From: Candidatus Zixiibacteriota bacterium
Lineage (GTDB): Bacteria > Zixibacteria > MSB-5A5 > GN15 > FEB-12
Assembly (NCBI GenBank): GCA_022571845.1
Contig: JACZXB010000005.1
Location: forward strand, 83,888 to 147,887
Direction of reading: 5' to 3'
Length of the DNA: 64,000 nt
Positions 5,313 to 43,583 of the stretch are shown here, one piece after another. A program made the translations under genes and the position numbers. How positions within the stretch are numbered: position 1 is the stretch's first letter; every line of letters begins with the position of its first letter. A model generated the notes under the pieces. The model saw nothing but the letters and a program-made list of their open reading frames with translations. It did not search any database and was not told the origin of the DNA.

Positions 5313-5365
5313 ACTTTCTTGCTTTCGAGCTGTTTTGGGGATAGTTTGCAAACCTATTAAATGAT

Positions 5366-5449
5366 GCCGAAGTGGTGAAATTGGTATACGCGCTGCGTTC
5401 AGGGCGCAGTGTTCGCAAGGACATGGGGGTTCGAGTCCCCCCTTCGGCA
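5366..5449 (+). tRNA. tRNA-Leu (anticodon CAG), class II with long variable arm, no encoded CCA
   Basis: Cloverleaf read by eye: acceptor GCCGAAG/CTTCGGC; anticodon stem CTGCG/CGCAG with loop TTCAGGG; variable arm TGTTCGCAAGGACAT; T-arm GGGGG-TTCGAGT-CCCCC; discriminator A. Confidence 0.9.
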
Positions 5450-5459
5450 TTAGATTATT
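5436..5459. repeat. attL-type direct repeat (last 14 nt of tRNA-Leu plus 10 nt downstream)
   Basis: TCCCCCCTTCGGCATTAGATTATT is identical 24/24 to 30300-30323. Confidence 0.85.
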
Positions 5460-5558: not shown

Positions 5559-6665
5559 ATGGGAATTGTTTATAAGAGAGGAAAGAATTGGTACATCGAT
5601 GTAATGTCGAAGGGAAGACGAATACGCAAACGCGTCGGTCCGTCGAAGAGAGTAGCCGAGCTTGCTCTCAAGGATGCCGAAGTCAAGATCGCGCGTGACC
5701 GATTTGGATTCAGCAAGAACGATATTACTCTTGATAAGATGTTCGAGCTATTTCTTGAATACTCGAAAACAAGCCATCGCCCTAAGACAACGGAACGATA
5801 TGGTAATGTCATTGACAACTTTCAAGGCTTTCTGCTTAGCGTAAAAAATGTATCGTACTTATCAGAAATAACAGTGCAGTTAATGGATCAGTACAAAGGC
5901 TATCGTAAGACGTCCAACGGAAATGGAGCTTCAGATCATGTTAAGGGAATGGTTGTAACAAATGGAACTAACGGTAAGGCGGCCAAAGCAAGAACGATTA
6001 ATTTTGAACTTGATACTCTTCGCTTGATTTTCAATCTGGCTATCAAGTGGAGCTATCTGACCGACAACCCTGTGAAGGGTGTAACAAGGCTGAAAGAGGA
6101 CGATTCTGGTACGCCAAGGTTCTTGACCAAAGCTGAGTGCAAACGATTTCTTGACGCCTGCCCGAAGTATCTTCAACCGATCTATTTCACTTTCCTGAAC
6201 ACAGGGATGAGAAAAGCTGAATTGGAATACCTGACCTGGGCAGATGTAGACTTCGACAGAAAAGTCATTCATGTTAGGGCAAAAGAAAGCTGGAATCCAA
6301 AGACAGGCGAACGCCAGATACCGATGAACAAAGAATTAGTCAAAGTCCTGACCGACCTCAAAAAGAGTGAAGGGGAAGTTAAGAGTAAAGATTACGTCTT
6401 CGAAATCACCCATTATTCAAATTCACATAACATGCTTCGCAATGAATTGATCAAAATCGCCAAAGCTGCTGAAATCGAAAACCTGACCAAGGTACATACT
6501 CTCCGTCATACTTTTGCCAGCCACTTAGTGATGAGTGGAGTGGACCTGCCAACTGTTTCTAAACTAATGGGACATACTGATATTGAAACAACTATGATCT
6601 ATGCACATCTGGCACCAGAACATCTGGCCGATGCGGTAAGTAAACTATCATTTTTAGAACCCTAA
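5559..6665 (+). CDS. int: Tyrosine recombinase / phage-type integrase
   Basis: 368 aa. The C-terminal catalytic region HTLRHTFASHLVMSGVDLPTVSKLMGHTDIETTMIYAHL carries the HxxR...Y signature. The gene sits directly next to the tRNA gene and the att repeat. Confidence 0.9.
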   Translation: MGIVYKRGKNWYIDVMSKGRRIRKRVGPSKRVAELALKDAEVKIARDRFGFSKNDITLDKMFELFLEYSKTSHRPKTTERYGNVIDNFQGFLLSVKNVSYLSEITVQLMDQYKGYRKTSNGNGASDHVKGMVVTNGTNGKAAKARTINFELDTLRLIFNLAIKWSYLTDNPVKGVTRLKEDDSGTPRFLTKAECKRFLDACPKYLQPIYFTFLNTGMRKAELEYLTWADVDFDRKVIHVRAKESWNPKTGERQIPMNKELVKVLTDLKKSEGEVKSKDYVFEITHYSNSHNMLRNELIKIAKAAEIENLTKVHTLRHTFASHLVMSGVDLPTVSKLMGHTDIETTMIYAHLAPEHLADAVSKLSFLEP

Positions 6666-12300: not shown

Positions 12301-13376
12301 GGCAATACGGAATAGTGCTAACGATTTTAGCGAGTTCACCAAGGAAAACCCAGCACGCTAATATTTCGCTTTTTGGCCCCTTTAGGAATTTTGAGAACTT
12401 CAAGAAGGGTGTTAAGAAAAAGCCTGTGACACTTAGCGGAAAAGATGTTCTTGACTGGACTGATTCAGCCCTACTTCCTTTACTTTCATCAAAGGAATCG
12501 GTCGAGGTTTTCCAGCAATTGAGGAAGGCACCACGTCTCGATTCTCAACTTGATGATTGGAGATGCAGGCCAGTTCAAGGAGATTTGAATGCAACAACGG
12601 GTAAGAAATATATGACATTTAGTGAAGTACGACTAAAACATTATTGGCCAGTTTATAAAGGCGAATCATTCGGAATCTGGAATCCCGATACAAGCATTTA
12701 CTACGCGTCGGTGGAGCCTAAAAAAATTGTTAAACACTTGCAGGAAAAGCGTAAAAGAGCTCATGGAAATTCCCGCTCCGCCTTTAGCGAGTTTTCGGAA
12801 AAGATGATAGAGGATGTAAGTACACTGACCTGTCTTTATCAACGAATTGCTTTTCGGGATGTTACGAACTCCATTGACAGTCGAACTGTTATTGCTTCCT
12901 TGGTTCCGCCAAATTTAGTCTTGACACACAAAGCACCTTACTTCTTATGGCCAAGAGGTGATGAATTGGATCAAGCTTTTCTTTTGGGAGTGTTGTGCTC
13001 ATTCCCACTCGACTGGTACGCAAGGCGTTTTGTGCAAACCACTCTAAATTTTCAAATTCTGTCTCCTTTTCCCGTTCCACATCCTGATAGGGCAAATACA
13101 CTTTGGAAACGGGTTGTAGCACTCGCTGGTCGCCTTGCTTGTCCTGACAAAAGATTTGCGGAATTCGCTAAGAAGGTTGGAGTTAAGTGCGGACCACTTA
13201 AAGCTGATGAAAAAGAAGATATGATACACGAATTGGACGCAGTGGTAGCACACTTATACGGACTAAATGAAAAACAAATAGTTCACATTTTTGAAACATT
13301 CCGCGTCGGCTACACTTACGAAGTTCGCATAAAAGAAACACTAAAATATTTCAAAGAGTGGAAAAAGAAGTTGTGA
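9399..13376 (+). CDS. Large Eco57I/PglX/DrmMI-like N6-adenine DNA methyltransferase with ~560-aa N-terminal extension and C-terminal specificity region
   Basis: Motif I is DIAMGSGHFLIAA (MGSGHFL = 11106-11126). The family-typical helical insert is CIYGVDLNPLAVELARLSVWIH...CGNSLVG. Motif IV is IIGNPPWEK (NPPW = 11877-11888). The start is uncertain: TTG 9399 is listed, but the frame is open back to 9279. Confidence 0.85.
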   Translation: MEVLVYYTAKRPRADALKKVWNERQGGRGVPLLVVALQESLCHFCGHTEKLANTAHTDLPIENIELLCRAALQLPNHHSVDRFLREHIRESDSPIFGIINHGLLATYVIQRGKEEVGESDWSTASRNVTEFFSKKKLFDSTDHRKLLNNLGYTIESLKGPAYILTSDDSHLALAILLDQNESAELPSGRFGNQTPISSALQMAQTHNLDWVIVCRGSELRLYPTRTGVGVGQRGLTDTYLSLDINLLPESRLPFLWLTMSAEALRQDGFISELRAKSHRFATNIGKRLRERIYITVIPKLAMAIVKARGLKKPSTEDLELTYQMAMLVLFRLLFIAYAEDHDLLPYRSNPAYKARSLTQKARELIEVMQKKREFDTGTSHWEEVNGLWDAVRAGHKEWEVPPYDGGLFEEDKEKHPAGYELSEIKLSNRDFGVVLTNVLLDQDTPEGLGPVDFRSLGVREFGTIYEGLLENELSVAEQNLTTDKKGHYKPTDDKKKIEVRKNEIYLHNRSGARKSSGSYYTKSFAVEHLLDHSLEPALDEHLKKVEALAKTDSTNAGKQLFEFYVADIAMGSGHFLIAAIDRIEKRFITFLGQTPLKSVDDELEKLRVAAKKTLGEAADERQLEKNQLLRRLIARRCIYGVDLNPLAVELARLSVWIHTFVPGLPLSFLDHNLVCGNSLVGIGTFDEAIDELTEAGANYGLFDDPAKKLLEAASDDIRTLRELPDADMKDIDRAKAAIRHMEKALSGLKAIFDILSAARIDDEIVEKMGAGAAGLLTNLKQLDTLFGSALHKKAREVLSAIRPFHFPIAFPEIFLRQTPGFDVIIGNPPWEKTQVEENEFWCRNYPGFKGLQQSDREKLMLIYKKERRDLVERLEAERKEADSIRLTLMTGPFPGMGSGHPDLYKAFCWRFWHLIRKEYGYIGVVLPRSAWAGQGLEIFRKKIIKDCRTVFLTTLINMNHWVFPEVHGQYGIVLTILASSPRKTQHANISLFGPFRNFENFKKGVKKKPVTLSGKDVLDWTDSALLPLLSSKESVEVFQQLRKAPRLDSQLDDWRCRPVQGDLNATTGKKYMTFSEVRLKHYWPVYKGESFGIWNPDTSIYYASVEPKKIVKHLQEKRKRAHGNSRSAFSEFSEKMIEDVSTLTCLYQRIAFRDVTNSIDSRTVIASLVPPNLVLTHKAPYFLWPRGDELDQAFLLGVLCSFPLDWYARRFVQTTLNFQILSPFPVPHPDRANTLWKRVVALAGRLACPDKRFAEFAKKVGVKCGPLKADEKEDMIHELDAVVAHLYGLNEKQIVHIFETFRVGYTYEVRIKETLKYFKEWKKKL

Positions 13377-13945
13377 TTGTTCGAAGTGACAGAGTAACTC
13401 CCGATAAACTTAAGTGGTACGACCGGTTTGGGCCTTATGCGTGGATATGTTATGAGGGGAAAGTCTTGAGAATGGATTATGATATACAGACCATCAATGA
13501 CGCGCATCGGCTACTAATTAGAAAAGAACATCACAATTTGATTAAGCTTCAGAAAGAGCCATTTACTTATGTAATGACCGGCTGTAAAGAGGACTGGATT
13601 AAGTATGGTCTTCAACCTGTCTATTTCTTGGTGGAAGATGTTAAAAAAGACAATAGGTGGTATCAACCAATTCGACAAATCGACCAGGCTTCTCAAAAAG
13701 AGCCATATTGGATTACTGAAGATATTGAGGAAGGAATAGAGCAATGTAGGCAAATAGTGGGATGTCCGAATTGCTGCCCCGATGAGAGACCATGGCCCCA
13801 AGCGGCTATTGCAGTACCGGTAAAAGGAATTGCAGAGCATTTTCTGGAAGCAGGGTGGGATAAGCTAATAGTTGATGAAGTTATATTGGACAAAGAAGTT
13901 GATTGGTTTAAGCAGGGCAGATTGCCCTTGGATAAAGAGAAATGA
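13358..13945 (+). CDS. Hypothetical 195-aa protein with Cys cluster (CRQIVGCPNCCP), coupled to the methyltransferase
   Basis: Its GTG start overlaps the MTase stop by 19 nt. No recognisable family. Confidence 0.45.
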   Translation: MEKEVVIVRSDRVTPDKLKWYDRFGPYAWICYEGKVLRMDYDIQTINDAHRLLIRKEHHNLIKLQKEPFTYVMTGCKEDWIKYGLQPVYFLVEDVKKDNRWYQPIRQIDQASQKEPYWITEDIEEGIEQCRQIVGCPNCCPDERPWPQAAIAVPVKGIAEHFLEAGWDKLIVDEVILDKEVDWFKQGRLPLDKEK

Positions 13946-14046
13946 GATATTGGTATCCAACTTGATATTGCATTTTGATATATCAAGATTAGATGGGGAC
14001 AACTTGATATTCCAAATTGGAACATCAAAATGTGAATTGAACAAAA

Positions 14047-17000
14047 ATGAGCAAACCGGAATTTGTTGACAACCGCGACGGCAACACGCTTGCCGAAGCT
14101 CTTCGTACCCATTTAGATTGGTTAGGTGAGACTTATGCCCAGCCGGTCGAGCTGTCTATCGCAACGGGATATTTCAATCCAGGCGGTTTTGCACAAATAG
14201 CAAATCATTTAGAGCGGATTTCTAAAGTGCGCTTATTGATTGGCGCCGAGCCGCTATCACCGCCTGCTATTCCCCGCCGAGACCCGATGAAAGACCCCCG
14301 GGGAGAAAAATTCGATCGCAAAATACTGGCTGACAAACTTCTCGAAGAAGAAAATGGAATTCGCAAAGACCGTGATTTGCTAGAGTTTGAACCAGAAGTA
14401 GATGCAACAGTTCGCCGATTATTGGAGTTTTTGAAATCTGGAAAAGTTGAAGTGCGTCGTTATGAGAGAGGTTTTCTTCATGGAAAAGCGTTTATCTTTT
14501 CTGATGATGAAGGGGTGTTGGCCGGTTCATCAAACTTTACGGCGGCTGGTCTTTTGTCAAATCTTGAACTAAATCTGGGCCACTATCAACCGGGTTTAGT
14601 CAAACGGGTAAAAGACTGGTTCGGTGATCTGTGGGTAGAATCAGTCCCGTATGACTTGGTCAGCATTTATGAGGCGCGCTATAAAGAATATGACCCGTAT
14701 CTAATTTATCTTCGAGTGCTATGGGAGCTTTATAAAGATGAAATGGAAGAAGAACGTCAGCCCAGCGGACGAATACCGCTAACTACTTTTCAAAATGACG
14801 GAATTAGCAGAGCTCAAAGAATTCTTGATAAATATGATGGCGTGATTATTGCCGACGGTGTTGGACTTGGTAAGACGTTTATTGCTGGTGAAATGATGCG
14901 AATAGTGCAGGACAACAGACAGAGGGTGTTACTGATTTCACCGGCAGCACTAAGGGACGGAACATGGAATAGATTTCAAATGAGAACACAACTGCGGTTC
15001 GAAAATCTATCATATGAGCAACTAGTTTTGGGTTCGGAGAGTTTTAAGCCAGATGAATACGAAATGGTAGTTATTGATGAAGCACAGGCATTTCGGAATC
15101 CGAATACTCAACGGGCACAGGCGCTCCGTAAATTATTGCAAGGCAAGCCTCCTAAGAAGTTAGTTCTAATGACAGCCACTCCAGTAAATAACTCGTTATG
15201 GGACTTGTATTATTTGATGACGTATTTCCTCAAACATGACGCGGTGTATGCGGACAAAGGAATCCGTTCGCTAAAACAAAGATTTACAGAAGCACAGAAG
15301 ATTGACCCATTTGATTTACGGCCGGATGTCCTTTTTGATGTTCTAGATCCGATAACAGTTCGGCGAACGCGTCAGTTTGTCCAAAAGTGGTATCCACACG
15401 AAACAATCACTTTACCAGACGGCACTCAGATTCCTGTACGTTTTCCTACCCCCCATGTTGGAAAAGTAGAATATAATCTTGAGAAAGTCTTACCCGAGAA
15501 CTTCTTTGAAGACTTTGCCGAAGCACTTGCACCGGAAAAAGGCGCTCCGGCTTTAACATTAGCACGATATCAACCATCCGCATATTTGAAAAAGGAAGAA
15601 ACGTTCGAGAGCGAAGTGGCATTAGTTGGACTGTTACGATCTGCACTACTCAAAAGATTCGAGTCTTCGGTTTATGCATTTGGTCGAACATCTGCAAAAA
15701 TGGCCAGAGCTAACGAAATGTTCTTAGCTGCTTTGGAAGAGGGATTTGTACCATCACCGCAAGCAATGGAAGAATTGCTTGAAACAGATTCTGATGAAGC
15801 GATAGAAGAACTGTTAATTGAATCAGGTTCAGAACCTGTTAAACTATATGAAGTTGATAGGTTGAAGGCTGATGTTACAAAAGATCGTGATTTATTACAG
15901 TCATACTTCAAAATTGCTGAGTCAGTCGTTCCTGAAAAGTCTCCCAAACTCAAACAGTTGGCTGAAACAATTGTAAAGATAATAAAACAGGCTGAAAGTG
16001 AAGCCGGAGGTAGTGAATATCCACGGGACAAAATTAAGGTCTTGATCTTTTCCTATTACGGGGATACAGTGAGATGGATTTACAATTACCTCTCAAAAAT
16101 GACCGAAACTGACCTACGCTTGGCACCATATCGAGGAAGAGTTGCAGCTATTGTAGGTGATAAAGCTCTGCAGGGAGGCTCTCGCGAATCAACAGTTTTT
16201 GGTTTTGCACCGGATACTACTGAGGCACCGCAACGATTTGCAGAAGATAAATTTGACATTCTTATTACAACTGATGTTTTGGCCGAAGGTATGAACCTGC
16301 AACAATGTCGTCACATTATAAACTTTGATTTGCCTTGGAACCCAATGCGACTGGTGCAACGTCACGGACGAATTGATCGCATTGGTAGCAAACACAAAAA
16401 TGTCTTTATAAAATGCTTCTTCCCCGACGTTAGATTGGATGACTTGCTTGCTTTAGAAATTCGCATTCGCAGCAAATTGGCCCGAGCAGCTGCCTCAATA
16501 GGAGTTGAATCGGAAGTAATCCCTGGTGGCACGATTGAAGAAGTAATCTTTACTGAAACGAAAGAACAAATTGAGGCATTGAAGAGTGGCGATGCTAATT
16601 TGTTCGAGCGTGGAGAAGAAATAGAGGGCGCTCATTCTGGCGAAGAATATCGTCAAGAATTACGAAAAGGGCTGGAAGATTTCGGTGATAATATTGTGAA
16701 TTTGCCCTGGGGAGTGGGGTCAGGCTTCAAGTACGGAATTCAACCTGGATGGTTCTTTTGTGCTTGTGTAGGCGATAAAATATTTTTGCGCTTCGTTCCG
16801 GAAGATAAACAAAATCCGATAGTGACTGACACTTTGGGATGTCTAAGGCACGTTGCTTGTGAGCGTACTACTCCTCGACACTTACCCGGAGTTAGTATCA
16901 AGAGTGCATACGAGGCCTGGAACAAAGCCCGTACTCATATCTTTCAAGAGTGGACAATGGCAACTGACCCCAAAAATTTACAACCTAAAATCCGGCCACT

Positions 17001-17286
17001 CTTTAGAAAAATGGCAGAACATATTCGTCAAAATCCGCCGGAAAACATAAATCAAAATCAAATAGAAGACACCGTTGATGCAATTTTGGCTCCCTGGGGA
17101 ATTCGTTATGAAAGAGAATTGCGACCTATAATGCAGGACGAGGCCAGTTCGGATGAAGAAAGGTCAAAGCAGATAATCGATAAGGTGGCCGAACTGGGGA
17201 TGTCCCCTTACGTTAAGCCGGAGCCCTTACCACTTATTGATGCAGATGAAGTGAAGTTGATTTGTTGGATGGGGATATTAAGCTGA
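14047..17286 (+). CDS. Phospholipase-D-family nuclease domain fused to an SNF2-family helicase
   Basis: HKD motif HGKAFIFSDDEGVLAGSSNFT (14479-14541). SNF2 motifs are ADGVGLGKT, VIDEAQAFRN (DEAQ = 15076-15087) and LMTATPVNNS. The C-terminal helicase motifs are TDVLAEGMNLQQC and LVQRHGRIDRIGS. Confidence 0.85.
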   Translation: MSKPEFVDNRDGNTLAEALRTHLDWLGETYAQPVELSIATGYFNPGGFAQIANHLERISKVRLLIGAEPLSPPAIPRRDPMKDPRGEKFDRKILADKLLEEENGIRKDRDLLEFEPEVDATVRRLLEFLKSGKVEVRRYERGFLHGKAFIFSDDEGVLAGSSNFTAAGLLSNLELNLGHYQPGLVKRVKDWFGDLWVESVPYDLVSIYEARYKEYDPYLIYLRVLWELYKDEMEEERQPSGRIPLTTFQNDGISRAQRILDKYDGVIIADGVGLGKTFIAGEMMRIVQDNRQRVLLISPAALRDGTWNRFQMRTQLRFENLSYEQLVLGSESFKPDEYEMVVIDEAQAFRNPNTQRAQALRKLLQGKPPKKLVLMTATPVNNSLWDLYYLMTYFLKHDAVYADKGIRSLKQRFTEAQKIDPFDLRPDVLFDVLDPITVRRTRQFVQKWYPHETITLPDGTQIPVRFPTPHVGKVEYNLEKVLPENFFEDFAEALAPEKGAPALTLARYQPSAYLKKEETFESEVALVGLLRSALLKRFESSVYAFGRTSAKMARANEMFLAALEEGFVPSPQAMEELLETDSDEAIEELLIESGSEPVKLYEVDRLKADVTKDRDLLQSYFKIAESVVPEKSPKLKQLAETIVKIIKQAESEAGGSEYPRDKIKVLIFSYYGDTVRWIYNYLSKMTETDLRLAPYRGRVAAIVGDKALQGGSRESTVFGFAPDTTEAPQRFAEDKFDILITTDVLAEGMNLQQCRHIINFDLPWNPMRLVQRHGRIDRIGSKHKNVFIKCFFPDVRLDDLLALEIRIRSKLARAAASIGVESEVIPGGTIEEVIFTETKEQIEALKSGDANLFERGEEIEGAHSGEEYRQELRKGLEDFGDNIVNLPWGVGSGFKYGIQPGWFFCACVGDKIFLRFVPEDKQNPIVTDTLGCLRHVACERTTPRHLPGVSIKSAYEAWNKARTHIFQEWTMATDPKNLQPKIRPLFRKMAEHIRQNPPENINQNQIEDTVDAILAPWGIRYERELRPIMQDEASSDEERSKQIIDKVAELGMSPYVKPEPLPLIDADEVKLICWMGILS

Positions 17287-17482
17287 AGTCGTTAGCGAGT
17301 GCTGCACCGAGTTGCCTTAGGGGCAATCAGGATACAGTGAATAAGGCTCTTAATCGCAAGAGTGTTGAAAGATTTGCAGCTAACTCTTCGAATTGGATGG
17401 AAAATAACCCAAATTCAATATTGACCTAATGTCTGGCGCATATTAACTTTAGGGCAATAATCCTATCAAAAAGAGGTAGAAA

Positions 17483-18208
17483 ATTAGGCAGCGTCTTTTA
17501 GTAAGTGTTAGAGCGAAAAACGATGCTCTGGAAGCAATCAAAGGAGGAGCCCAGATTATTGATGCCGAATATCCCGGGTCGGCCCTTGGCACTTGCTGGC
17601 CTGCGAATATTAGGGCTATTCGTAACCATACTCCAGCCGAGCTTCAGGTGAGTACGAATATTGGCGAAAAACAATTTGTCTGGAGTACTGCCGGTCAGGC
17701 GGCTGTTGGTGTAGCGTTTGCTGGAGCAAATATTATCAAGGTCGGTCTGGCTGAACTTAATAAGACGAAAGCTTTAAGAGTCATGAAAAATGTTACGCAC
17801 CAAGTCAATTACTTTTTCAAGGATAAACCGCCTGCTATGATTGCAACTTTCTTTGCTGATGAAGATCTGCGTAAATTCTTTGACCCAGTAGTAAACGGAG
17901 CAGAGGTTTCATCAAAGTCAAAAGCTAACGGGGTGCTCATAGATACATTCGATAAGAATTGTGGAAAAAGCCTTTTGGACTGGCTAAGTTTGAAAGAGAT
18001 CAAATCTTTTGTCAAAAACTGCCATACGCAAAATCAAGAAGCTTGGCTTGCGGGATCAATAACAAAAGCACAGATGCCAGGGTTGTGGAAAACAGGGGTA
18101 GATGTTATTTGTGTTAGAGGGGCCGCTTGTGAAAGTGGAATGGGTCGACAAGCGAAAGTAATCGCACGAAAAGTTAAAGCACTTATGAACATATTATCAG
18201 GAAATTAG
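17483..18208 (+). CDS. MfnB / DUF556-like (4-HFC-P synthase family) TIM-barrel protein, divergent, probable non-canonical ATT start
   Basis: The frame opens at 17480. The upstream part reads RLLVSVRAKNDALEAIKGGAQIIDAEYPGSALG, followed by VSTNIG, IIKVGL, VMKNVT, LIDTFDK, LAGSI and VRGAAC, which match my memory of the family. The first canonical start (GTG 17648) would delete the conserved N-terminus. AAGAGG (17471-17476) lies 6 nt before ATT 17483. Confidence 0.6.
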   Translation: MRQRLLVSVRAKNDALEAIKGGAQIIDAEYPGSALGTCWPANIRAIRNHTPAELQVSTNIGEKQFVWSTAGQAAVGVAFAGANIIKVGLAELNKTKALRVMKNVTHQVNYFFKDKPPAMIATFFADEDLRKFFDPVVNGAEVSSKSKANGVLIDTFDKNCGKSLLDWLSLKEIKSFVKNCHTQNQEAWLAGSITKAQMPGLWKTGVDVICVRGAACESGMGRQAKVIARKVKALMNILSGN

Positions 18209-18219
18209 GATAATTAGTG

Positions 18220-19542
18220 ATGCCCCTATACTTATCTAGAGTAAAAATTTCCAATATCAGGTGCTTCGAAAAACTCAATATTAATTTTCGCAAAAAAGAT
18301 GACCTTATACTCTGGACGACTTTGCTCGGAGACAATGCGACTGGCAAAACAACCTTATTGAAATGCATTGCGTTGGGTTTATGTGACGAATCCAGTGCAG
18401 CCGGATTGTTAAAGGAGTCTGAAGAAGGATACATTAGGAAAGATGAGGAATGGGCGACAATTTCAATTGAATTATGCTACAGCAAAGGTAGCAACAAGAC
18501 ATATCGGATAAATACGAGGATTGAGAAAATTCGAATGAAAGGGAAGGAAAAACAAACTTTCGAGAAACTTAGACAACGTACAATCCCTTTTAAAAATTTT
18601 CCATGGCATGACATTTTTGTATGCGCATATGGAATAGGTCGTGGAATATCGGGCACTGGAGATATTTCAGGTTATTACCCCATTAGCGCTGTCTATAATC
18701 TTTTCAACTATTTTGAGGGACTTCAGAACCCCGAATTAATTCTTCGACGCATAGATAAGAAAACAACCGTAAAGAGAATTCTTAAGGAAGTTAGTGAAAA
18801 AGCAATGCGAGCAGCTGGTATTGATCCAATCTCGATGGCTGGGGCAAAGGAAGGACTTAAAGTTAGCGGACAATGGGAAAGTGAGTTTCCGCTTAGAGAT
18901 GTTGCAGATGGAGTTAGGTCTTTTTTACAGTGGATTATTGATTTTATCGGTTGGGCACTTAGCTATGATAAGAAAATAGATAGACTCAAAATGATTCATG
19001 GAATTGTAATTGTAGATGCGTTAGAAGAGCACCTACACCCGGTTTGGCAACGATATGTTGTCAGTGATCTTAAGAAGGCATTTCCAAACGTCCAGTTCGT
19101 GATTTCTTCTCATTCACCACTAGTAGCTGCTGGTTCTTCTGATTTTGAGGATGCATTATTGGTAAATTTAGTACTCGAGCTTGGAAATAAAGTAGTAAGA
19201 AAATACATTAACCTTAAAAGCCTACATAATCTGCGACCTGATCAAATACTAAGGATCGCTTTCGGCCTGCCTGTGATCATTAGTCCCAAATCCCCCGATA
19301 GAATTTCACGTTTCATTGAACTTGCAACTAAAAAGAAGCCTAGCCCGTCTGAAAAGAAACAACTGGCAACGTTGAAGCAGAGTATTAAAAGTACATTTGA
19401 ATTTGAACACACAAATTACGAACAACAAGTGTACAACGCTCTAAACATTGTGCTTAAGAAGATCCTGAAAGAGGAACCATCGGAAATTCACAAATTGATA
19501 GAGCAAAAAACTCTTTATAAGTTATTTAGGGGGGGCGATTAA
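18220..19542 (+). CDS. AAA/ABC-type ATPase, Septu PtuA-like
   Basis: N-terminus LSRVKISNIRCFEKL; Walker A GDNATGKT (18328-18351); Walker B IVIVDALEEHLHP. An HNH gene follows immediately. Confidence 0.65.
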   Translation: MPLYLSRVKISNIRCFEKLNINFRKKDDLILWTTLLGDNATGKTTLLKCIALGLCDESSAAGLLKESEEGYIRKDEEWATISIELCYSKGSNKTYRINTRIEKIRMKGKEKQTFEKLRQRTIPFKNFPWHDIFVCAYGIGRGISGTGDISGYYPISAVYNLFNYFEGLQNPELILRRIDKKTTVKRILKEVSEKAMRAAGIDPISMAGAKEGLKVSGQWESEFPLRDVADGVRSFLQWIIDFIGWALSYDKKIDRLKMIHGIVIVDALEEHLHPVWQRYVVSDLKKAFPNVQFVISSHSPLVAAGSSDFEDALLVNLVLELGNKVVRKYINLKSLHNLRPDQILRIAFGLPVIISPKSPDRISRFIELATKKKPSPSEKKQLATLKQSIKSTFEFEHTNYEQQVYNALNIVLKKILKEEPSEIHKLIEQKTLYKLFRGGD

Positions 19543-19544
19543 TA

Positions 19545-20321
19545 ATGCGGAAAATAGTATTTGATGAACCAACTCATGCAAAGTGGATAAAATGGCGTAA
19601 AGATTGTGAAACGGCTTCCAGGAAAATAGTTGATGAGTTTAAACGAAGTAAAAAGTTTGAAATCAATAACAAACTATACAAGAGACAAAAATCTGAATAC
19701 TATAAGGAAGATGGAGCATTTTTCGGAAAATGTGCATATTGTGAAGCTAAACTAAAATCCAAACCAAGTTTAGACCACTACCGTCCAAAGAAGGCCGTCG
19801 CCGATGAAAACGGGAATCAATTAAAACACCCGGGGTATTATTGGTTAGTATATTCCTGGGATAATTTACTGCCTTCCTGCGCATCATGTAACGAGGGTGC
19901 AAAGTTTAAGGGTGTAAGTGTCGGAAAACAGGACAAATTTCCCGTTAGAAACATTCGCGCGAGAAGACCAGGAGATGAGGTTAAAGAAAAGCCACTGATA
20001 CTGAATCCGACCATTGATGACCCTGCAAAGCATCTTGAATGGAGTTCAGACAAAGGGAAAATGATGATTGGAAAAACTAAAGAAGGTAAAATTACTATTA
20101 AAATTTTATGGGGTGAATCACAAGACATAATAAAGGAAGAATGGGAAACGGCTTACAATGATGTGCTTGCAAGGTTATTTGGTTTTCTTTTTTCAGGAAA
20201 GGCAAACTGGCGACAAGAAAGACAAAAGTTTACTGATGGAATAATAAGTGGTAAAGCTGAATATTCGTTTGTTCGAAGAGCGGCATTGAGGGACGTGAAA
20301 GATTTCAGTATTGAACCATGA
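19545..20321 (+). CDS. HNH endonuclease, Septu PtuB-like
   Basis: CAYCE...LDHYRPK...WDNLLPSCASCN is an HNH Cys/His pattern. The gene starts 2 nt after the ATPase stop. Confidence 0.65.
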   Translation: MRKIVFDEPTHAKWIKWRKDCETASRKIVDEFKRSKKFEINNKLYKRQKSEYYKEDGAFFGKCAYCEAKLKSKPSLDHYRPKKAVADENGNQLKHPGYYWLVYSWDNLLPSCASCNEGAKFKGVSVGKQDKFPVRNIRARRPGDEVKEKPLILNPTIDDPAKHLEWSSDKGKMMIGKTKEGKITIKILWGESQDIIKEEWETAYNDVLARLFGFLFSGKANWRQERQKFTDGIISGKAEYSFVRRAALRDVKDFSIEP

Positions 20322-20345
20322 ATTGAAAAGGATTTATTTTAATAC

Positions 20346-21539
20346 GTGTTTGAAAAATTAAGAGAGTCGACTCCTTGCTACATTGTAAGCGAGCAAAAAC
20401 TGCGAACAAAGTTTACAATGCTCAAGACTATGTCGCAGCTTAAGGACTTTTCGTTTATTTTCCCGCTGAAACCAGTTGCAATCCCAGTCGTGCTTAATCT
20501 ATTGAAAGAAGTTGTTTCTGGCTTTTCGGTTAGTTCTTTAAATGAGTCCATTCTGGTCAGGAAGTTATTCCATGCTGAAATTCCTGTATTCTTGACTTCT
20601 CCGGCAATGAAAAGTGAGGAAGTCGATAGGCTCGCTAATCTGTGTGACCATATAAGCTTTAACTCCCTCGGACAATTAGCAAGGTTTGGTTCAGTGTTCG
20701 CGAGACGATGTAAATTAGGACTTAGGGTTAATCCGGGCTTATCTTTTGTAAAAGACAAAAGATATAATCCTTGCAGAAAGTATTCAAAGCTAGGTGTCAC
20801 GCTTGACGAACTTAATGAGTTAGTTCAGATGAAATCCGATGAATTAAAACAAATCTCTGGCATTTCCTTCCATAATAATTGTGAGTCAGATGATTTTGCT
20901 GATTTATTAGAAACTATACATATTCTAAATGAAAGAATTCCTGCAGTGCTGCAGTCAATAAATTGGATAAATATTGGCGGCGGTTACTCTATATCGAAAA
21001 AGACTAATTGGGATCCCTTTCTGAAGGGCATTCGAATTTTAAAAGAGAAGTATAACTTGAAAATCTACTTTGAGCCGGGTAAGGGCATTATAGGAGATAC
21101 AATTCAATTGATTTCATCTGTCCAGGATATAATAGCAAGAAAAGATAAGCTAATCGCAATTTTGGATACCTCTGTCAATCACATGCCTGAAGTTTTCGAA
21201 TATCAATATCGGCCATCTGTCTTGCATAGTAACACGAAGGGTAAACATAGATATATTCTTGCAGGCGCATCTTGCCTTGCCGGTGATATTTTCGGAGAAT
21301 ACTCATTTGATAAGCAATTGGAAATTGGGTCAAAGATTGTCTTTGAAGACATGGGTGCATATACTCTCGTAAAGGCACATATGTTTAATGGAATCAATTT
21401 ACCTACTATTTATTTGTTGAGTATGGATGGTGAATTGGAATTAATAAGAGAATATGATTACGAGGACTTCTTGTCCAGATGTGGAGCCAAAAAGCATGAT
21501 ACTATACGAAAAGTCGCTTACGATATCAAAGCCAGTTAA
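20346..21539 (+). CDS. nspC: Carboxy(nor)spermidine decarboxylase-like PLP enzyme (fold-type III)
   Basis: TPCYIVSEQKLR N-terminus, NIGGGY, FEPGKGIIGD, LAGASCLAGDIFGEY, and the C-terminal FEDMGAYTLVKAHMFNGINLPTIY. Confidence 0.7.
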   Translation: MFEKLRESTPCYIVSEQKLRTKFTMLKTMSQLKDFSFIFPLKPVAIPVVLNLLKEVVSGFSVSSLNESILVRKLFHAEIPVFLTSPAMKSEEVDRLANLCDHISFNSLGQLARFGSVFARRCKLGLRVNPGLSFVKDKRYNPCRKYSKLGVTLDELNELVQMKSDELKQISGISFHNNCESDDFADLLETIHILNERIPAVLQSINWINIGGGYSISKKTNWDPFLKGIRILKEKYNLKIYFEPGKGIIGDTIQLISSVQDIIARKDKLIAILDTSVNHMPEVFEYQYRPSVLHSNTKGKHRYILAGASCLAGDIFGEYSFDKQLEIGSKIVFEDMGAYTLVKAHMFNGINLPTIYLLSMDGELELIREYDYEDFLSRCGAKKHDTIRKVAYDIKAS

Positions 21540-22893
21540 TAAACGGAATCTTCTACAGACATTCACGGATAGGATTTTATCTCAGCTCCCTGATGGTGAG
21601 ATTCCTGTTAGATGTGTTGTTACCGAATCAAACGATGCCGAATGGAAATGCGAACTTGGCGTTATGGCCGAATTTTCTGATCGATACATCCTAAATTATG
21701 ATTTTATTTTTAAGTTCAGGAAGCGTCAATATGAGAATTGTGACGCTTTTAATATAGTGCTTATTGTGCCTACTGGAATAGATGCAGAAATAGGGGGGGA
21801 TGCTGGGGATGCCGGACCGGTGGCGAGGCTTTTGGCTGGTAGTTGCGACAATCTGATAACACATCCAAACGTTGTCAACGCTTCGGACATAAACGAATTG
21901 CCAGATAACGGGCTATACGTTGAAGGAAGCGTATTGACCCGGCTCTTGATGGGTTCAGTTGGGCTGCAAAAGGTAAGGTCAAATAGAGTATTGGTGGTTT
22001 TGGATAAGCACGAGGACAAGTTCTTTTATGAAGCTGCCGTCAATTCTGTTTCAGCAGCCAGGTCAAACCTCGGGCTGAATTGTCCTTCGGTCGTACTGAT
22101 GGACGAAAAGATTTCGATGCAGTCATTATATTCCAATTCTGGGAGGGCAGTTGGCAGTATAACCCACTTAGAACGGCTTTGCGATTTACTCAATACTCAC
22201 AGAAGTCAATTTGACGCTGTCGCGCTATCTTCAGTAATCCAAGTTCCCCCAGAGTGCCATGCAGATTATTTCATTACCGAGATGATTAATCCTTGGGGTG
22301 GAGTGGAGGCAATGCTAACCCACACATTATCCAGCTTATTCAATGTGCCGACAGCCCACTCTCCTATGCTGGAAAACAGAGAAATACTAAATCTTGAAGT
22401 GGGAATAGTAGACCCAAGGAAGTCAGCAGAAGCGATTTCAACGACCTTTCTGCACTGTATTTTGAAAGGATTACACAAAAGTCCGAAAATAATTGAAAGC
22501 CCTCGATTAGATGGCGAGTCAGGTCTTTTGACTGTCGTTGACGTTTCGTGTATCGTAATACCTTACGGTTGTATTGGTTTACCGACTCTGGCAGCAATTG
22601 AACAGGGGATACCAGTCATAGCGGTAAAAGAAAATACGAATCGAATGAGAAACCGCCTCGAGGATTTGCCTTTTGAAAATGGCCAGCTCTATGTGGTTGA
22701 CAACTATCTGGAAGCAGTAGGTGTAATTCAGGCCATTAAGTCCGGGGTCGCTATCGATTCTGTTCGACGGCCAATGGAGCAGACGCAGGTTGTTGGGATT
22801 GAACAAAAGAAATCCACGAAATCGACTGCCATAAATTGCCGCCCTGCAGAAGAAAAGACCCAAATTGAGGAGTCAAAAAGATCAGCCGGTTGA
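21496..22893 (+). CDS. DUF3326-like protein (conserved, uncharacterised) with N-terminal extension
   Basis: LIVPTGIDAEIGGDAGDAGPVARLLAGSCDNLITHPNVVNASD...LYVEGS matches my recollection of the DUF3326 core. The start is ambiguous: ATG at 21454, 21496 or 21664. The first two overlap the nspC-like gene. Confidence 0.55.
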   Translation: MILYEKSLTISKPVNKRNLLQTFTDRILSQLPDGEIPVRCVVTESNDAEWKCELGVMAEFSDRYILNYDFIFKFRKRQYENCDAFNIVLIVPTGIDAEIGGDAGDAGPVARLLAGSCDNLITHPNVVNASDINELPDNGLYVEGSVLTRLLMGSVGLQKVRSNRVLVVLDKHEDKFFYEAAVNSVSAARSNLGLNCPSVVLMDEKISMQSLYSNSGRAVGSITHLERLCDLLNTHRSQFDAVALSSVIQVPPECHADYFITEMINPWGGVEAMLTHTLSSLFNVPTAHSPMLENREILNLEVGIVDPRKSAEAISTTFLHCILKGLHKSPKIIESPRLDGESGLLTVVDVSCIVIPYGCIGLPTLAAIEQGIPVIAVKENTNRMRNRLEDLPFENGQLYVVDNYLEAVGVIQAIKSGVAIDSVRRPMEQTQVVGIEQKKSTKSTAINCRPAEEKTQIEESKRSAG

Positions 22894-23074: not shown

Positions 23075-24247
23075 ATGAAAATCAAATCAGAAAACGCGAG
23101 GAATAAAAAGATGACTTCTTTCATGTCCAGATTCTCAAAGTGTCTATCTGTTGTCGCCATAATTCTTGCATCATTTCTTATTCTTTTCCTCGGGTGTGGT
23201 AAGAAGGAAGAGGGGGTATTAAAGATAGGGGCGACTCTTCCGCTCAGTGGAGACGCTGCCGTATGGGGTAACAACACTAAAGATGGAATTGACCTCGCCG
23301 TAGAGGAGTTGAACGCGATTGGTGGTATAAAGGGAAGAACAGTTAAAGTAATTTATGAAGATACTGAAGCATTACCTGCAAAAGGAGTTAACGCCTATAA
23401 GAAGTTGACCAGTATCGATAAGGTTGAAGTAATTATCGATAACTCCGTTAGCAGTGTTACCCTGGCAATGGCGCCGATGGCTGAGAAGGATAGCGTAGTA
23501 ATTCTCGCAACTGGAGCAACTGCACCAAAGATTTCAGAAGCTGGTGAATTCATATTTCGTATTTGGAATTCCGACGCTTATGAAGGAGAATTTTCGGCTT
23601 CATTTGCCATTAATGATTTGGGGCTAAAGAAAGTAGCGATTCTTTACATTAATAATGACTACGGTATTGGGCTTGAAAAAGTATTCAATTCAAAGTTTAA
23701 TGAATTTGGCGGAGAAGTGGTGGAATCACAAAGTTTCGATCAAAGCGCTACTGACATGAGAACTCAATTAACAAAGATTAGCGCTTCCACACCAGACGTC
23801 CTCTATTTGGTTGGGTATCCCAAGGAAATACCGATTGCATTAAGACAAATCAAAGAATTAGGCATAAATATGCCCTTGATCGGAACGGTTGCAATGGAGG
23901 ACCCTCAGTTAATACAAAGTGCAGGGAACGCCGCTGAAGGATTAATGTATCCATTTCCAGTTGCTCCTTCAGGCGAGCATGTTAACCAGTTTAGAAACTC
24001 ATTTATGAACAAATATGGAAAAGAACCAGGTATCACGTGTGACGTCGGGTATGACGCAGTAAATATGATTGCCAAATCAATTCTGCTATCCGGTGGGGAC
24101 AGAGGCGAAGAGATACGTAAAGGTTTAAATATGATTGAAGACTATCCAGGAGTTTCTGGCATTATGACGTTTGATGAAAATGGTGATGTACAGAAGCCGA
24201 TGATGATGAAAGTGATAAAGAATGGCGCCTTCAACTGGCTTAACTAA
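23075..24247 (+). CDS. ABC transporter substrate-binding lipoprotein, Leu/Ile/Val-binding (type 1 periplasmic binding protein) family
   Basis: Signal peptide with lipobox LFLGCG, then KIGATLPLSGDAAVWG typical of LivJ/K-like proteins. The start could also be the ATG at 23111. Confidence 0.8.
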   Translation: MKIKSENARNKKMTSFMSRFSKCLSVVAIILASFLILFLGCGKKEEGVLKIGATLPLSGDAAVWGNNTKDGIDLAVEELNAIGGIKGRTVKVIYEDTEALPAKGVNAYKKLTSIDKVEVIIDNSVSSVTLAMAPMAEKDSVVILATGATAPKISEAGEFIFRIWNSDAYEGEFSASFAINDLGLKKVAILYINNDYGIGLEKVFNSKFNEFGGEVVESQSFDQSATDMRTQLTKISASTPDVLYLVGYPKEIPIALRQIKELGINMPLIGTVAMEDPQLIQSAGNAAEGLMYPFPVAPSGEHVNQFRNSFMNKYGKEPGITCDVGYDAVNMIAKSILLSGGDRGEEIRKGLNMIEDYPGVSGIMTFDENGDVQKPMMMKVIKNGAFNWLN

Positions 24248-24299
24248 AAATTCTAATACACCAACTAAAATAAGCAAGACTACACGTTTTAAAATTGCC

Positions 24300-25331
24300 A
24301 TGACTCAATTTAGTAAGTCTATTTTAAGGGTCATAATACATTTAAAGATTTTTTTTAAGAGAACATTTAGCTTTTGTTACATTCATTCGACTTTTAGATC
24401 TTTCGTCATTCCTGTATTCTTTGGTTTGGCTACTTTTGTAATTGGTCGGTTTATCTTTGATGATTTGATTGTAATTGTTTTGACGATTTTTGCCGTACTT
24501 CTGTCTCTCAAGTTCGTGCAATCATTAAGCGGTATAGTATTTAGAAAACATCTAAAACCGTATGTTACTCTATTGGACCGGTTACATCCAGTTACACAGA
24601 AGTTCGGGTCTGAGTTAACAGGGCGTTATATAAAATATTTTCGAGACAAGAAAGAAGAAAAGTTCATTAATCTAGATATTTTTGTTCGGAATCGTAAAAT
24701 ATGTTTACTGAACCTTCTAGAAGAACTTGAAGATGCAGGAATTTATTTGAAAGAGGACGAGTATGAATTATTGCTCAGTAGTACAAGCGCATTAGATCCG
24801 GGTACTTTTCTTGCAATTTGGGATACTGATCAAATAAAAATTACTGAATCAGTAGCCAAGACATATTTGAACTGTTTGGAAAAACAATACAAAACACAAT
24901 TGGAAAGAAACAAGCGAAGGATATTTGTTTTCAAAGATAAAAATGCGTACATGCAAACGATTAACCATAACGTTGACTGGCCACCTTTATTGAAAAAGCA
25001 CTTTTCTTCATTTGGATTCAAGAAAGTTCATTATTGCTATAAGAGTGATTTTAATAGGGTAATTGCTAGTCATCAGAACGCAACGAAGAAGGTCACGGAC
25101 TTTATTTTGTGCAGTTTATCAACTTTAGTAGGTCGATTTCGATGGCTCATAGGCGTGGGAGTCAATAAAGATGAAACGAAAAAAACCTATTTAGTTTCGG
25201 ATAGAGAAATTCGTTCGGAAATTGATTCCACATTTGCATTTTACAAGGACTTGCTGAAAGACTCAGATAAAAATAAGAGATATTTTTTACCCAATCATAA
25301 TGGAGGATACAATGGGTCAATTAATTATTAG
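24300..25331 (+). CDS. Hypothetical membrane-anchored protein
   Basis: Two N-terminal hydrophobic helices and a ~250-aa soluble domain with no recognised motif. The internal ATG at 24300 is preferred over 24222, which overlaps the upstream gene. Confidence 0.4.
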   Translation: MTQFSKSILRVIIHLKIFFKRTFSFCYIHSTFRSFVIPVFFGLATFVIGRFIFDDLIVIVLTIFAVLLSLKFVQSLSGIVFRKHLKPYVTLLDRLHPVTQKFGSELTGRYIKYFRDKKEEKFINLDIFVRNRKICLLNLLEELEDAGIYLKEDEYELLLSSTSALDPGTFLAIWDTDQIKITESVAKTYLNCLEKQYKTQLERNKRRIFVFKDKNAYMQTINHNVDWPPLLKKHFSSFGFKKVHYCYKSDFNRVIASHQNATKKVTDFILCSLSTLVGRFRWLIGVGVNKDETKKTYLVSDREIRSEIDSTFAFYKDLLKDSDKNKRYFLPNHNGGYNGSINY

Positions 25332-25488
25332 GTATACTAATTCGGAAAAAATAAAATCTGGTACACTTAATTTAAATCTAAAACTCAAGAAAAAGGAACA
25401 TGCATCAATTAAGGATGCTGACATTGAGGAAATTGTGCTAGATGGTAAGGCGTTTAAACCTATTAAAATTGTGGATCAGAAAAATTAG
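25312..25488 (+). CDS. Small hypothetical protein (58 aa)
   Basis: GGAGGA lies 4 nt before ATG 25312. Lys-rich; no family recognised. Confidence 0.3.
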   Translation: MGQLIIRYTNSEKIKSGTLNLNLKLKKKEHASIKDADIEEIVLDGKAFKPIKIVDQKN

Positions 25489-25512
25489 AATTTAAGTCGG
25501 CTATGTTAATTA

Positions 25513-26541: not shown

Positions 26542-26548
26542 ACTTACT

Positions 26549-27423
26549 ATGTCGCAACTCCTCCTCAACGGCATAATCGCCGGCAGTATATATGCGCTAA
26601 TCGCGATTGGGTTTACGGTTATATACAAGACCGTGAAATTTTTTCATTTTGCGCATGGAGTAGTCTATACCACGGGGGCTTATCTGGCCTACACTTTGGT
26701 CATACAGTTCGGTGTTAACCCTATTGTAAGTTTTTTTTTGCCTCGACACTGACCGCCATACTCGGCGTTACAATTGACCGGCTGGTCTATCGTCCTCTTC
26801 GCAAGCGTAAAGCGGCCAACTTAGTTTATCTCATAGCCTCATTCGGGATTTTCATTTTTGTTCAAAATCTGCTTCAGCTCATTTATGGGGCACAGATTCT
26901 GACTCTACGCACCGGACCAGTTATAGAGGGACACCATATCCTCGGGGCGGTCATTACCGACATTCAGATTCTAATACTCATTGTCAGTTTAGTTTTCTTA
27001 GCAGCTTTGTGGCTTTTCATTCAACGCACCAGACTTGGAAAAGAGATGCGGGCAGTGGCCGATGACCCTATAGCTGCAAGAGTAGTCGGCATCTACCCAG
27101 AGAAAGTTATCTTTATGGCGTTTGCAATCGGTTCGGCACTTGCCGGTGCAGCGGGAATACTAATATCACTGGAAACCAACATTCAACCCACTATGGGCTT
27201 CAATGCAATTCTGAAAGGAATCATTGCATCAATTATAGGCGGAATCGGCAGTATCCCAGGGGCAGTGCTCGGCGGGTTCTTCCTGGGAATTGCAGAGAAT
27301 CTAGGTATCTGGAAAATCCAGGCCGGCTGGAAAGACAGCATTGCTTTTGCGATTCTGATAATCTTCCTCTTGTTTCGCCCGGGAGGAATTTTCGGTGTGC
27401 CAGTTGATAAGGAACGGATTTAG
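26549..27423 (+). pseudogene. livH: LivH-type branched-chain amino acid ABC permease, split by a 1-nt frameshift in a T9 run
   Basis: The frame-2 ORF 26549-26752 ends in TGA. The LivH-like sequence continues without stops in frame 1 from 26740 (ASTLTAILGVTIDRLVYRPLRKRK...) to 27423. The junction is the T9 homopolymer at 26731-26739; T10 would restore one ORF. Confidence 0.8.
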
Positions 27424-28292: not shown

Positions 28293-28298
28293 GCAATT

Positions 28299-30299: not shown

Positions 30300-30323
30300 T
30301 CCCCCCTTCGGCATTAGATTATT
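30300..30323. repeat. attR-type direct repeat (copy of tRNA-Leu 3' end)
   Basis: TCCCCCCTTCGGCATTAGATTATT is identical to 5436-5459. Confidence 0.85.

Positions 30324-43509: not shown

Positions 43510-43583
<74 letters not shown>

Follow-up and report, generated by a model that had tools for sequence, protein, structure and literature searches.

A probable five-gene operon in a zixibacterial mobile island combines a four-gene Septu subtype with a promiscuous MfnB-like accessory gene

Introduction

Septu ranks among the commonest defence systems of bacteria. Its two genes, encoding PtuA and PtuB, were reportedly described by Doron et al. in 2018, and a second form, retron-Septu, is the type I-A retron Ec78/Eco7, which PADLOC lists as 'Septu type II'. 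To our knowledge, the restraint and triggering of PtuAB are known only for the plain and the retron-coupled forms. Here we analyse a Septu locus in a stretch of 64,000 nucleotides (nt) from a Candidatus Zixiibacteriota bacterium (contig JACZXB010000005.1, positions 83,888 to 147,887 of the forward strand), called the window below, in which the genes for PtuA and PtuB are preceded by a gene for a protein related to MfnB, the 4-(hydroxymethyl)-2-furancarboxaldehyde phosphate (4-HFC-P) synthase, and followed by genes for an nspC-like decarboxylase and a DUF3326 protein. Our analysis indicates that positions 17483-22893 probably form a five-gene operon, consisting of a four-gene Septu core and a promiscuous MfnB-like accessory gene.

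As in Septu, an AAA_15/AAA_21 ATPase gene is followed in the window by an HNH nuclease gene within a defence island, and the PtuA subclade of the window differs by a D-A pair in its Walker B motif. Retron-Septu joins the PtuAB effector pair to an extra non-nuclease module (PMC8565338, PMC12819146), a plan that is common to both; the extra module of the retron is a reverse transcriptase with a non-coding RNA, whereas the window has three enzyme genes instead. No structured RNA was found there, and Pfam searches detected no reverse transcriptase domain in the genes neighbouring PtuAB. With MfnB (MJ1099, PDB 4RC1/4U9P, PF04476), the window protein has in common full-length homology, the fold, and the residues Asp25, Lys85, Asp151 and Lys155; its clade, in contrast, carries Glu27, scores under half of the NCBIfam cut-off and lies in mobile defence islands of non-methanogenic bacteria.

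Two polyamine pathways resemble the 3' half of the row. In the CASDH/CANSDH and NspC pathway, as in the window, an nspC-like decarboxylase dependent on pyridoxal phosphate (PLP) stands beside a second enzyme, but the window is without a CASDH of the saccharopine-dehydrogenase type and has DUF3326 in its place. PavA (a decarboxylase) and PavB (a DUF3326 protein) have been implicated in the biosynthesis of the polyamine pavettamine (bioRxiv 10.64898/2026.06.12.731819), the only functional lead for DUF3326 in the literature searched. The pairing of DUF3326 with a decarboxylase is common to PavA/PavB and to the loci described here, in which the decarboxylase can be exchanged, in cassettes and phages, for an AdoMet_dc or a phosphatidylserine-decarboxylase-like protein. 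Unlike in both pathways, the pair is here tied to PtuAB or carried by phages.

Recruitment of a biosynthetic enzyme by a defence system has a precedent in QatABCD and in the type IV cyclic-oligonucleotide-based antiphage signalling system (CBASS), where a QueC-like homologue lies in an operon with an ATPase and a nuclease (PMC13376578, PMC13434339). The recruitment of a cofactor or nucleobase enzyme is alike, but the family is QueC there and MfnB here, and the QueC-like enzyme is fixed in one system, whereas the MfnB-like gene of the Glu clade is spread over many. Among nucleotide-centric modules (TIR and N-glycosidases of the nucleoside-2-deoxyribosyltransferase (NDT)/DrHyd type; Thoeris, CBASS), the Glu clade adjoins NDT-like, ThsB-like TIR, SMODS, SAVED and NucC genes, but the window operon has no TIR or NDT gene. 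We know of no signalling system that uses an MfnB-like barrel.

Our literature searches found no description of PF04476/DUF556/UPF0264/MfnB or of DUF3326 in defence, and no Septu coupled to polyamine-type enzymes; the matches to 'DUF556' were DUF5565 and a table entry for Imm49, both irrelevant. PADLOC and PHROGs contain no model for the MfnB-like, nspC-like or DUF3326 protein, and neither the five-gene nor the four-gene configuration was found in the searchable literature.

Results

An apparent four-gene Septu subtype with a facultative fifth gene

Matches to PF04476 and PADLOC models confirmed that the TIM-barrel gene of the MfnB family and the genes for PtuA and PtuB lie head to tail on the plus strand (Table 1). 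PtuA has the Walker A motif GDNATGKT at 18328-18351 and matches Pfam AAA_21, AAA_15 and AAA_23. PtuB, encoded directly 3' of PtuA, has CAYC at 19731, DH at 19770-19790 and CASCN at 19878-19892. The PtuA/PtuB architecture that a prior reading of the sequence alone had recognised from GDNATGKT and CxxC...DH...CxxCN is therefore present. The successive gaps in the five-gene row are 8-11, 2, 24 and -44 nt, the last being the overlap of the DUF3326 gene with the 3' end of the decarboxylase gene. The stop codon of the MfnB-like gene is at 18206-18208, and PtuA starts 8 nt on (GTG 18217) or 11 nt on (ATG 18220, the start in the public annotation), so the tight packing claimed earlier stands.

A terminator scan found no terminator-like site on the plus strand within 17287-22893, and a promoter-like match (10/12) lies 5' of the next gene at 23075; both scans are at chance level and uninformative save for the missing plus-strand terminator. 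No riboswitch or structured leader was found upstream of the operon, the sole Rfam match (E 0.77) being located elsewhere, and the upstream spacer folded no better than shuffles (z -0.65).

The sequence-only reading had proposed a three-gene Septu variant. This had to be given up: every PtuA-linked locus with enough flank (16/16) also has a decarboxylase and DUF3326, in rearranged orders and strands, for which reason the unit is counted as five genes, and the core occurs without the MfnB-like gene. The same five genes in the same order recur at L002, where the MfnB-like protein is 70% identical and the flanks are wholly different, and are seen again at L029, L030 and L032; the row opens with the MfnB-like gene, facing a divergent neighbour, in both L002 and L032. 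L016 has the order PtuA-PtuB-decarboxylase-DUF3326-MfnB-like-PtuA-PtuB. In a large group, DUF3326, decarboxylase, PtuB and PtuA are read in one direction and the MfnB-like gene divergently from PtuA in the other, often with an AdoMet_dc-type enzyme replacing the PLP decarboxylase. The decarboxylase of the cassettes is thus either PLP-type or the non-homologous pyruvoyl AdoMet_dc type (PF02675).

Starting from DUF3326 or PtuA, we reached loci in which PtuA-PtuB-decarboxylase-DUF3326 occurs with no MfnB-like gene within 7-8 kb (L109, L112, L182, L183); at L111, an NDT-like gene sits where the MfnB-like gene would be. When close DUF3326 homologues were sampled blindly, three of four adjoined PtuAB. 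The four-gene set of the window (18220-22893: PtuA, PtuB/HNH, decarboxylase, long-form DUF3326) is also found at L001, L002, L014, L016, L023, L026, L029, L030, L032, L063, L090, L095, L097, L098, L106, L109, L111, L112, L182 and L183. PtuA-PtuB-decarboxylase-DUF3326 thus appears to be a widespread four-gene Septu subtype, to which the MfnB-like gene would be a facultative fifth gene, an add-on, because the core occurs without it and one sister island (L181) holds a truncated copy.

The nspC-like decarboxylase of the window scores 329 bits with TIGR01047, below the NCBIfam equivalog cut-off of 409, and its partner is DUF3326, with no CASDH/CANSDH. DUF3326 belongs to a family of more than 5700 members, its relatives are 60-65% identical across phyla, and its AlphaFold2 model has a predicted local distance difference test (pLDDT) score of 77.7. 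The DUF3326 protein of one close relative is annotated as a protein of a Zixibacteria metagenome-assembled genome.

Decarboxylase and DUF3326 pairs in phages

DUF3326 is encoded at 68 loci in IMG/VR (L113-L180), mostly in a short form without the N-terminal ~85 residues of the Septu-linked form, and was not found in GenBank records of cultured phages. At 52 of the 68 viral loci an AdoMet_dc gene lies directly upstream of DUF3326, and at eight a phosphatidylserine-decarboxylase-like gene lies downstream; a few adjoin ornithine cyclodeaminase. Terminase, portal, tail, DnaB and RecA genes surround the viral loci. That three unrelated decarboxylase families pair with DUF3326 argues for one two-step pathway, in which decarboxylation of an amino-acid-like carboxylate would be the last step.

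A clade of the MfnB family with glutamate in place of the Schiff-base lysine

PF04476 (4-HFC-P synthase, MfnB) matched the MfnB-like protein over the whole profile (1-227 of 228, E 1.6e-46, Pfam), and the MJ1099/MfnB structure PDB 4RC1 was matched with E 4e-31 at 35% identity. An AlphaFold2 model of the protein made with 30 relatives has a pLDDT of 93.8 and a template-modelling (TM) score of 0.90 to 4RC1. In the HMMER alignment, IIDAEYP of the window protein lies over IIDVKNP of MJ1099, so that Lys27 is replaced by Glu, as the sequence-only reading had suspected. Lys27 is the Schiff-base lysine of MfnB (review, PMC6604932). The two motifs described earlier as retained are indeed kept, IKVGL (Lys85) at 17735-17749 and LIDTFDK (Asp151, Lys155) at 17936-17956.

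Glu27 is found in 106 of 106 sequences of the clade, which are the window and 105 loci, and D25, K85, D151 and K155 are likewise invariant. Because Glu is invariant across the clade, the exchange is a clade feature and not local degeneration. A protein search returned hundreds of close relatives, and scans of GTDB genomes and JGI metagenomes for the MfnB-like gene returned 103 loci; an exhaustive search of 1.84 billion cluster representatives gave 2225 family members, of which only nine had E <= 1e-30. Among the best 150 of these, 104 of the 121 full-length representatives have the canonical D-K-K-D-K, and the Glu type is a small group nearest the query. NCBIfam MfnB scores are 151 bits against a cut-off of 341 (NF002573) and 130 against 304 (NF002575). 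By fold the window protein is a member of the MfnB family, but the catalytic feature that defines the enzyme is missing from it. Since the Schiff-base lysine is an invariant Glu, we infer that the barrel cannot run the Lys27 Schiff-base chemistry and is no 4-HFC-P synthase. MJ1099 was crystallised with phosphoribosyl pyrophosphate (PRPP), and the Glu27 barrel keeps the three remaining catalytic residues and probably the phosphate-binding or sugar-phosphate pocket. Among those neighbours that received an annotation, which were a part of the total, no methanofuran gene was recognised, although no search aimed at mfn genes was made. The absence of the catalytic lysine and the defence-type neighbours described below bear out the earlier view that this is not an ordinary cofactor gene.

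The Glu27 clade in defence islands

In 22 of 87 dereplicated lineages PtuA is found no more than three genes away from the MfnB-like gene, an association far beyond chance. Counted by loci, PtuA/PtuB is linked to the MfnB-like gene in 28 of 105, and in a neighbour-joining tree these genes fall into three separate subclades with co-directional and divergent arrangements. The linkage of DUF556, PtuA and PtuB that the sequence-only reading had proposed to look for elsewhere therefore exists, but the clade is not Septu-specific. A recognised defence-type neighbour is present within three genes in 61 of 87 lineages. Neighbours include DUF6119, LmuB (Lamassu), HerA, GmrSD, a CHAT protease and ThsB-like TIR, as well as the CBASS genes SMODS, SAVED, E2 and NucC, Shedu SduA, OLD nucleases, ResIII helicases and several families of no known function. 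Immediate neighbours are usually on the same strand at gaps of 0-60 nt (median 21-24 nt), and the gene often overlaps a partner gene at its start or stop (-4, -1 and -16 nt). Because partner type follows the MfnB-like subclades in the neighbour-joining tree and PtuA linkage is found in three of them, these contexts appear to indicate stable linkage with repeated partner switching.

NDT-like genes adjoin the MfnB-like gene in 14 of 87 lineages. Two NDT-like families, of ~160 and ~270 amino acids, flank it (L007, L012, L017, L022, L049, L055, L056, L065, L074, L078, L083, L088, L089, L097), and P0115 (410 amino acids) is a fusion of an NDT-like and an MfnB-like protein. A 448-amino-acid 'MfnB-like' open reading frame (ORF) at L094 and L100 was considered as a further fusion and not counted, as it is probably an artefact of the ORF filter over antisense PtuA. 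A family of ~390 amino acids, 'c10', with no Pfam or PADLOC match, recurs beside the MfnB-like gene and often separates it from a divergent PtuA (L002, L014, L032, L043, L061-L064).

No member of the Glu clade turned up among IMG/VR viral contigs, and plasmids yielded only canonical MfnB of ~30% identity and no Glu clade. On the evidence of these gene neighbourhoods, the Glu clade appears to be a compact, strongly conserved and promiscuous defence-island gene that is attached to many unrelated immune systems.

Apparent exchange of PtuAB alleles in the sister islands

The window and the sister island L001 are ~86% identical in DNA on both sides of a variable segment. Homology in blastn stops at 18117, at the 3' end of the MfnB-like gene, and resumes at 20933, in the middle of the decarboxylase gene; the counterpart of the intervening segment in L001 is 8590-11360. 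Amino acid identity to L001 is 97% for the HKD-SNF2 protein, 83% for the MfnB-like protein, 31% for PtuA, 33% for PtuB, 55% for the decarboxylase and 93% for DUF3326, and among the three sister islands (the window, L001 and L181) the PtuA-PtuB segment is 31-53% identical. The third relative, L181, has an HKD-SNF2 helicase of 97% identity. Because the loss of homology is confined to the segment and the breakpoints of the PtuAB swap fall inside the flanking MfnB-like and decarboxylase genes, PtuAB alleles appear to have been exchanged by recombination anchored in the conserved enzyme genes. A rapidly evolving immune effector set in a conserved frame would be expected to behave in this way. The three sister islands make up a natural allelic series: one has an intact MfnB-like gene, one a swapped PtuAB, and one a truncated MfnB-like gene.

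Start codon and integrity of the MfnB-like gene

The frame of the MfnB-like gene is open from 17480, after an in-frame TAG at 17477-79, and the public annotation (P0002) begins the protein at GTG 17648 and gives it 186 amino acids, since no ATG, GTG or TTG lies 5' of that codon. All relatives conserve the 55 residues dropped in this way, which include the first β-strand as well as the DxE motif. Where the relatives have ATG, the window has ATT (17483), 6 nt 3' of AAAGAGG, and the same ATT and Shine-Dalgarno-like sequence are kept in the two diverged sister islands L001 and L181. The ratio of nonsynonymous to synonymous substitution rates (dN/dS) between the window (17483-18115) and L001 is 0.065, indicating purifying selection. 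AUU is a known, weak bacterial start codon, for example in infC. From the relatives' ATG position, the conservation of ATT with its Shine-Dalgarno-like sequence and the dN/dS value, the ORF is probably a functional gene with a weak AUU start.

It is unlikely that the gene is instead a decaying pseudogene without a start, leaving only PtuAB and the downstream genes functional. The missing conventional start before codon 56, the short public annotation and the truncated copy in a sister island would fit such decay, but all 241 codons are open with every clade-invariant residue present, and the purifying selection and the start region kept in three diverged islands speak against it, as does the established, if weak, use of AUU.

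The synonymous divergence (dS) of the MfnB-like gene to L001, 0.98, is several-fold above that of the flanking HKD-SNF2 (0.20) and DUF3326 (0.36) genes; the MfnB-like gene may itself have been exchanged with a more distant allele.

Proposed mechanism and alternative explanations

We propose that PtuAB would act, as it does in Septu and retron-Septu, as an HNH nuclease effector licensed by the ATPase, and that the decarboxylase and DUF3326 would jointly make or install an amine-type (polyamine-like) compound or modification that decides whether PtuAB fires, through protection of self or by holding the nuclease inactive. Phages may carry the enzyme pair to supply the compound or modification, either because their own DNA or polyamine supply requires it or as a means of neutralising this Septu subtype. 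The MfnB-like protein could transform triose, ribose or deoxyribose phosphate; it would then boost or condition, in a general way and by metabolic means, the immune system next to it and would not be a Septu-specific subunit. We suggest these substrates because the commonest enzymatic partners are of the N-glycosidase type (NDT-like, TIR), which release such sugars, and because the pocket appears to be retained and the structure of the family was solved with PRPP bound.

A more far-reaching combination of the two parts is offered tentatively: the Glu27 clade may be a portable metabolic immune accessory, and the Septu may be of a restriction-modification-like type. The accessory would have replaced Schiff-base chemistry, perhaps by metal- or Lys85-based chemistry, and would turn triose or (deoxy)ribose phosphate arising from infection or from NDT/TIR partners into a signal, a toxin or a depleted pool, plugging into Septu, CBASS, Thoeris-like, Lamassu, HerA and other systems. 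The decarboxylase and DUF3326 would be the modification or licensing half (an amine mark or ligand) and PtuAB the restriction half, the enzyme pair having been captured by phages as counter-defence.

Several observations weigh against the five-gene operon or its proposed working. The Walker B motif of PtuA, IVIVDALEE (19003-19029), has Ala in place of the catalytic Glu; the D-E form is present in 25 of 25 PtuA proteins of the surveyed loci and in 96 of the 120 nearest database homologues, and D-A is common to 14 of these 120, including the two closest. With D-A instead of D-E, canonical ATP hydrolysis is doubtful, and the motif suggests a PtuA subclade that would bind ATP and hydrolyse it poorly or not at all. 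The ATT start of the MfnB-like gene may keep its expression low. A promoter-like match (18186-18214, 9/12) lies just 5' of PtuA; the separate promoter or terminator considered earlier thus comes down to this match at chance level, with no plus-strand terminator before PtuA. The sister island L181 keeps only the first 59 codons of the MfnB-like gene (L181 6794-6970; homology to the window ends at 17663), with PtuA, PtuB, decarboxylase and DUF3326 intact, and most of the four-gene cassettes that were reached from PtuA or DUF3326 lack the MfnB-like gene; being dispensable in L181 and mostly absent from cassettes, it could be an independent neighbour. For DUF3326, the fold search gave no informative PDB neighbour, finding only a lumazine-synthase-like flavodoxin subdomain with whole-chain TM ≤ 0.3. 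The roles of all three enzymes are derived from genomic context, and most contexts were read from metagenome contigs, often short ones, with crude ORF calls as survey gene calls.

An independent neighbour is the form that the strongest alternative takes, which we regard as possible though short of even chances: the Glu-clade gene, alone or with an NDT-like gene, would be a small defence or stress module of its own, and its adjacency to PtuA would reflect island packing and co-transfer. The very many different neighbours fit this, as do the large subclade that is divergent from PtuA with its own NDT-like gene 3', the MfnB-like and NDT pairs that recur behind unrelated genes such as c25, c14 and DUF6119, the frequency of the four-gene cassette without the MfnB-like gene, and the survival of the cassette in L181. 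Against it stand the spacing of 8-11 nt to PtuA with no terminator between in loci of the window type, the common start/stop overlaps with partners (-4, -1, -16 nt) and the PtuA adjacency in three separate subclades. Moreover, in L002 and L032 the MfnB-like gene is promoter-proximal, so that PtuAB is predicted to be transcribed through it, and every Septu that it adjoins in our sample is of the DUF3326 type, never a plain two-gene one. The opposite extreme, an obligate three-gene Septu in which the MfnB-like enzyme is a specific third subunit or sensor of PtuAB, is improbable. It would explain the tight packing and the recurrent adjacency (28/105), but a decarboxylase and DUF3326 are present wherever a PtuA-linked locus has enough flank, the MfnB-like gene is missing beside some PtuAB of the same subfamily, it is naturally truncated in L181, and three quarters of the Glu clade adjoin other systems.

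Least probable is housekeeping metabolism, in which a cofactor gene and polyamine genes had a Septu pair inserted between them by chance. Such a view could appeal to the family names (methanofuran/methanopterin-type cofactor, polyamine synthesis), to the 60-65% identity of DUF3326 across phyla, which resembles that of a metabolic enzyme, and to the implication of a decarboxylase and DUF3326 pair in a polyamine pathway. Yet the whole set lies inside an island bounded by an integrase and att repeats, the five genes are found again, in other phyla and other orders, between flanks that are unrelated, the Schiff-base lysine is absent and the score far below the MfnB equivalog cut-off, defence genes are neighbours in 61 of 87 lineages, and blindly sampled close DUF3326 homologues adjoin PtuAB in three of four cases.

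A five-gene operon with a four-gene core and a promiscuous accessory would place a Septu subtype together with a decarboxylase and DUF3326, a pair also found in phages, which points to a control layer based on a small molecule or a modification and, through the phage-borne pairs, to a host-phage arms race. The position of the MfnB-like clade beside many immune systems suggests an undescribed, metabolism-linked layer of immunity, and there is a real chance that the clade is a new category of portable metabolic immune accessory. The Glu clade also offers a function-discovery handle on PF04476 outside methanogens and on DUF3326.

The island and its other genes

The earlier description of the surroundings as a mobile island is supported by an integrase, a tRNA-Leu gene and 24-nt attachment (att) repeats (Table 1). 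A ~24.9 kb island integrated at tRNA-Leu holds the five-gene operon. The repeat consists of the last 14 nt of the tRNA and the next 10 nt, with a perfect second copy at the right end; a search with 25 nt of the tRNA and <=3 mismatches missed this copy, and an exact-word search found the 24-nt repeat.

Table 1. Features of the island in the window, by position
Feature	Position	Strand	Basis or remark
tRNA-Leu(CAG)	5365..5450	+	ARAGORN; its 3' end serves as left attachment site
attL, left copy of the perfect 24-nt direct repeat TCCCCCCTTCGGCATTAGATTATT	5436..5459		Exact-match search and alignment
Tyrosine integrase of the island	5559..6665	+	Pfam Phage_integrase 3e-33
Eco57I/PglX-like methyltransferase, 1325 amino acids	9399-13376	+	Pfam, PADLOC, NCBIfam
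195-amino-acid protein	13358-13945	+	Middle gene of the methyltransferase/helicase block
HKD(PLD)+SNF2 helicase	14047-17286	+	PADLOC 'HKD+Snf2' 2.5e-63
Shine-Dalgarno-like AAAGAGG	17470..17476	+	Ends 6 nt 5' of ATT; kept in L001 and L181
MfnB-like TIM-barrel gene, 'Glu27' clade, 241 amino acids, probable ATT start	17483..18208	+	Pfam PF04476
IIDAEYP motif, Glu at the position of Schiff-base Lys27 of MfnB	17555..17575	+	Alignment to MJ1099
Hypervariable segment, apparently exchanged by recombination relative to sister island L001	18118..20932		blastn
PtuA ATPase	18220..19542	+	PADLOC PtuA 1e-54
PtuB HNH nuclease	19545..20321	+	PADLOC PtuB 7e-41
nspC-like PLP-dependent decarboxylase, Orn/DAP/Arg decarboxylase fold	20346..21539	+	Pfam PF02784, PF00278
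DUF3326 protein, 465 amino acids	21496..22893	+	Pfam PF11805 1.5e-93
attR, right copy of the 24-nt direct repeat, island end	30300..30323		Exact-word search

The block of methyltransferase, 195-amino-acid protein and HKD+SNF2 helicase (9399-17286) is common only to L001 and L181 and is absent at the other MfnB-like loci; it is likely a separate, independent defence system. In L181, the middle gene of this block encodes an ORF6N protein. Besides all of the defence genes, the island contains an ATP-binding cassette transporter and a polyprenyl synthase (23075-29784). Outside the island, the window has a second tRNA, Arg-ACG (43509-43584, minus strand), and a very large ORF of 1867 amino acids (45901-51504, minus strand).

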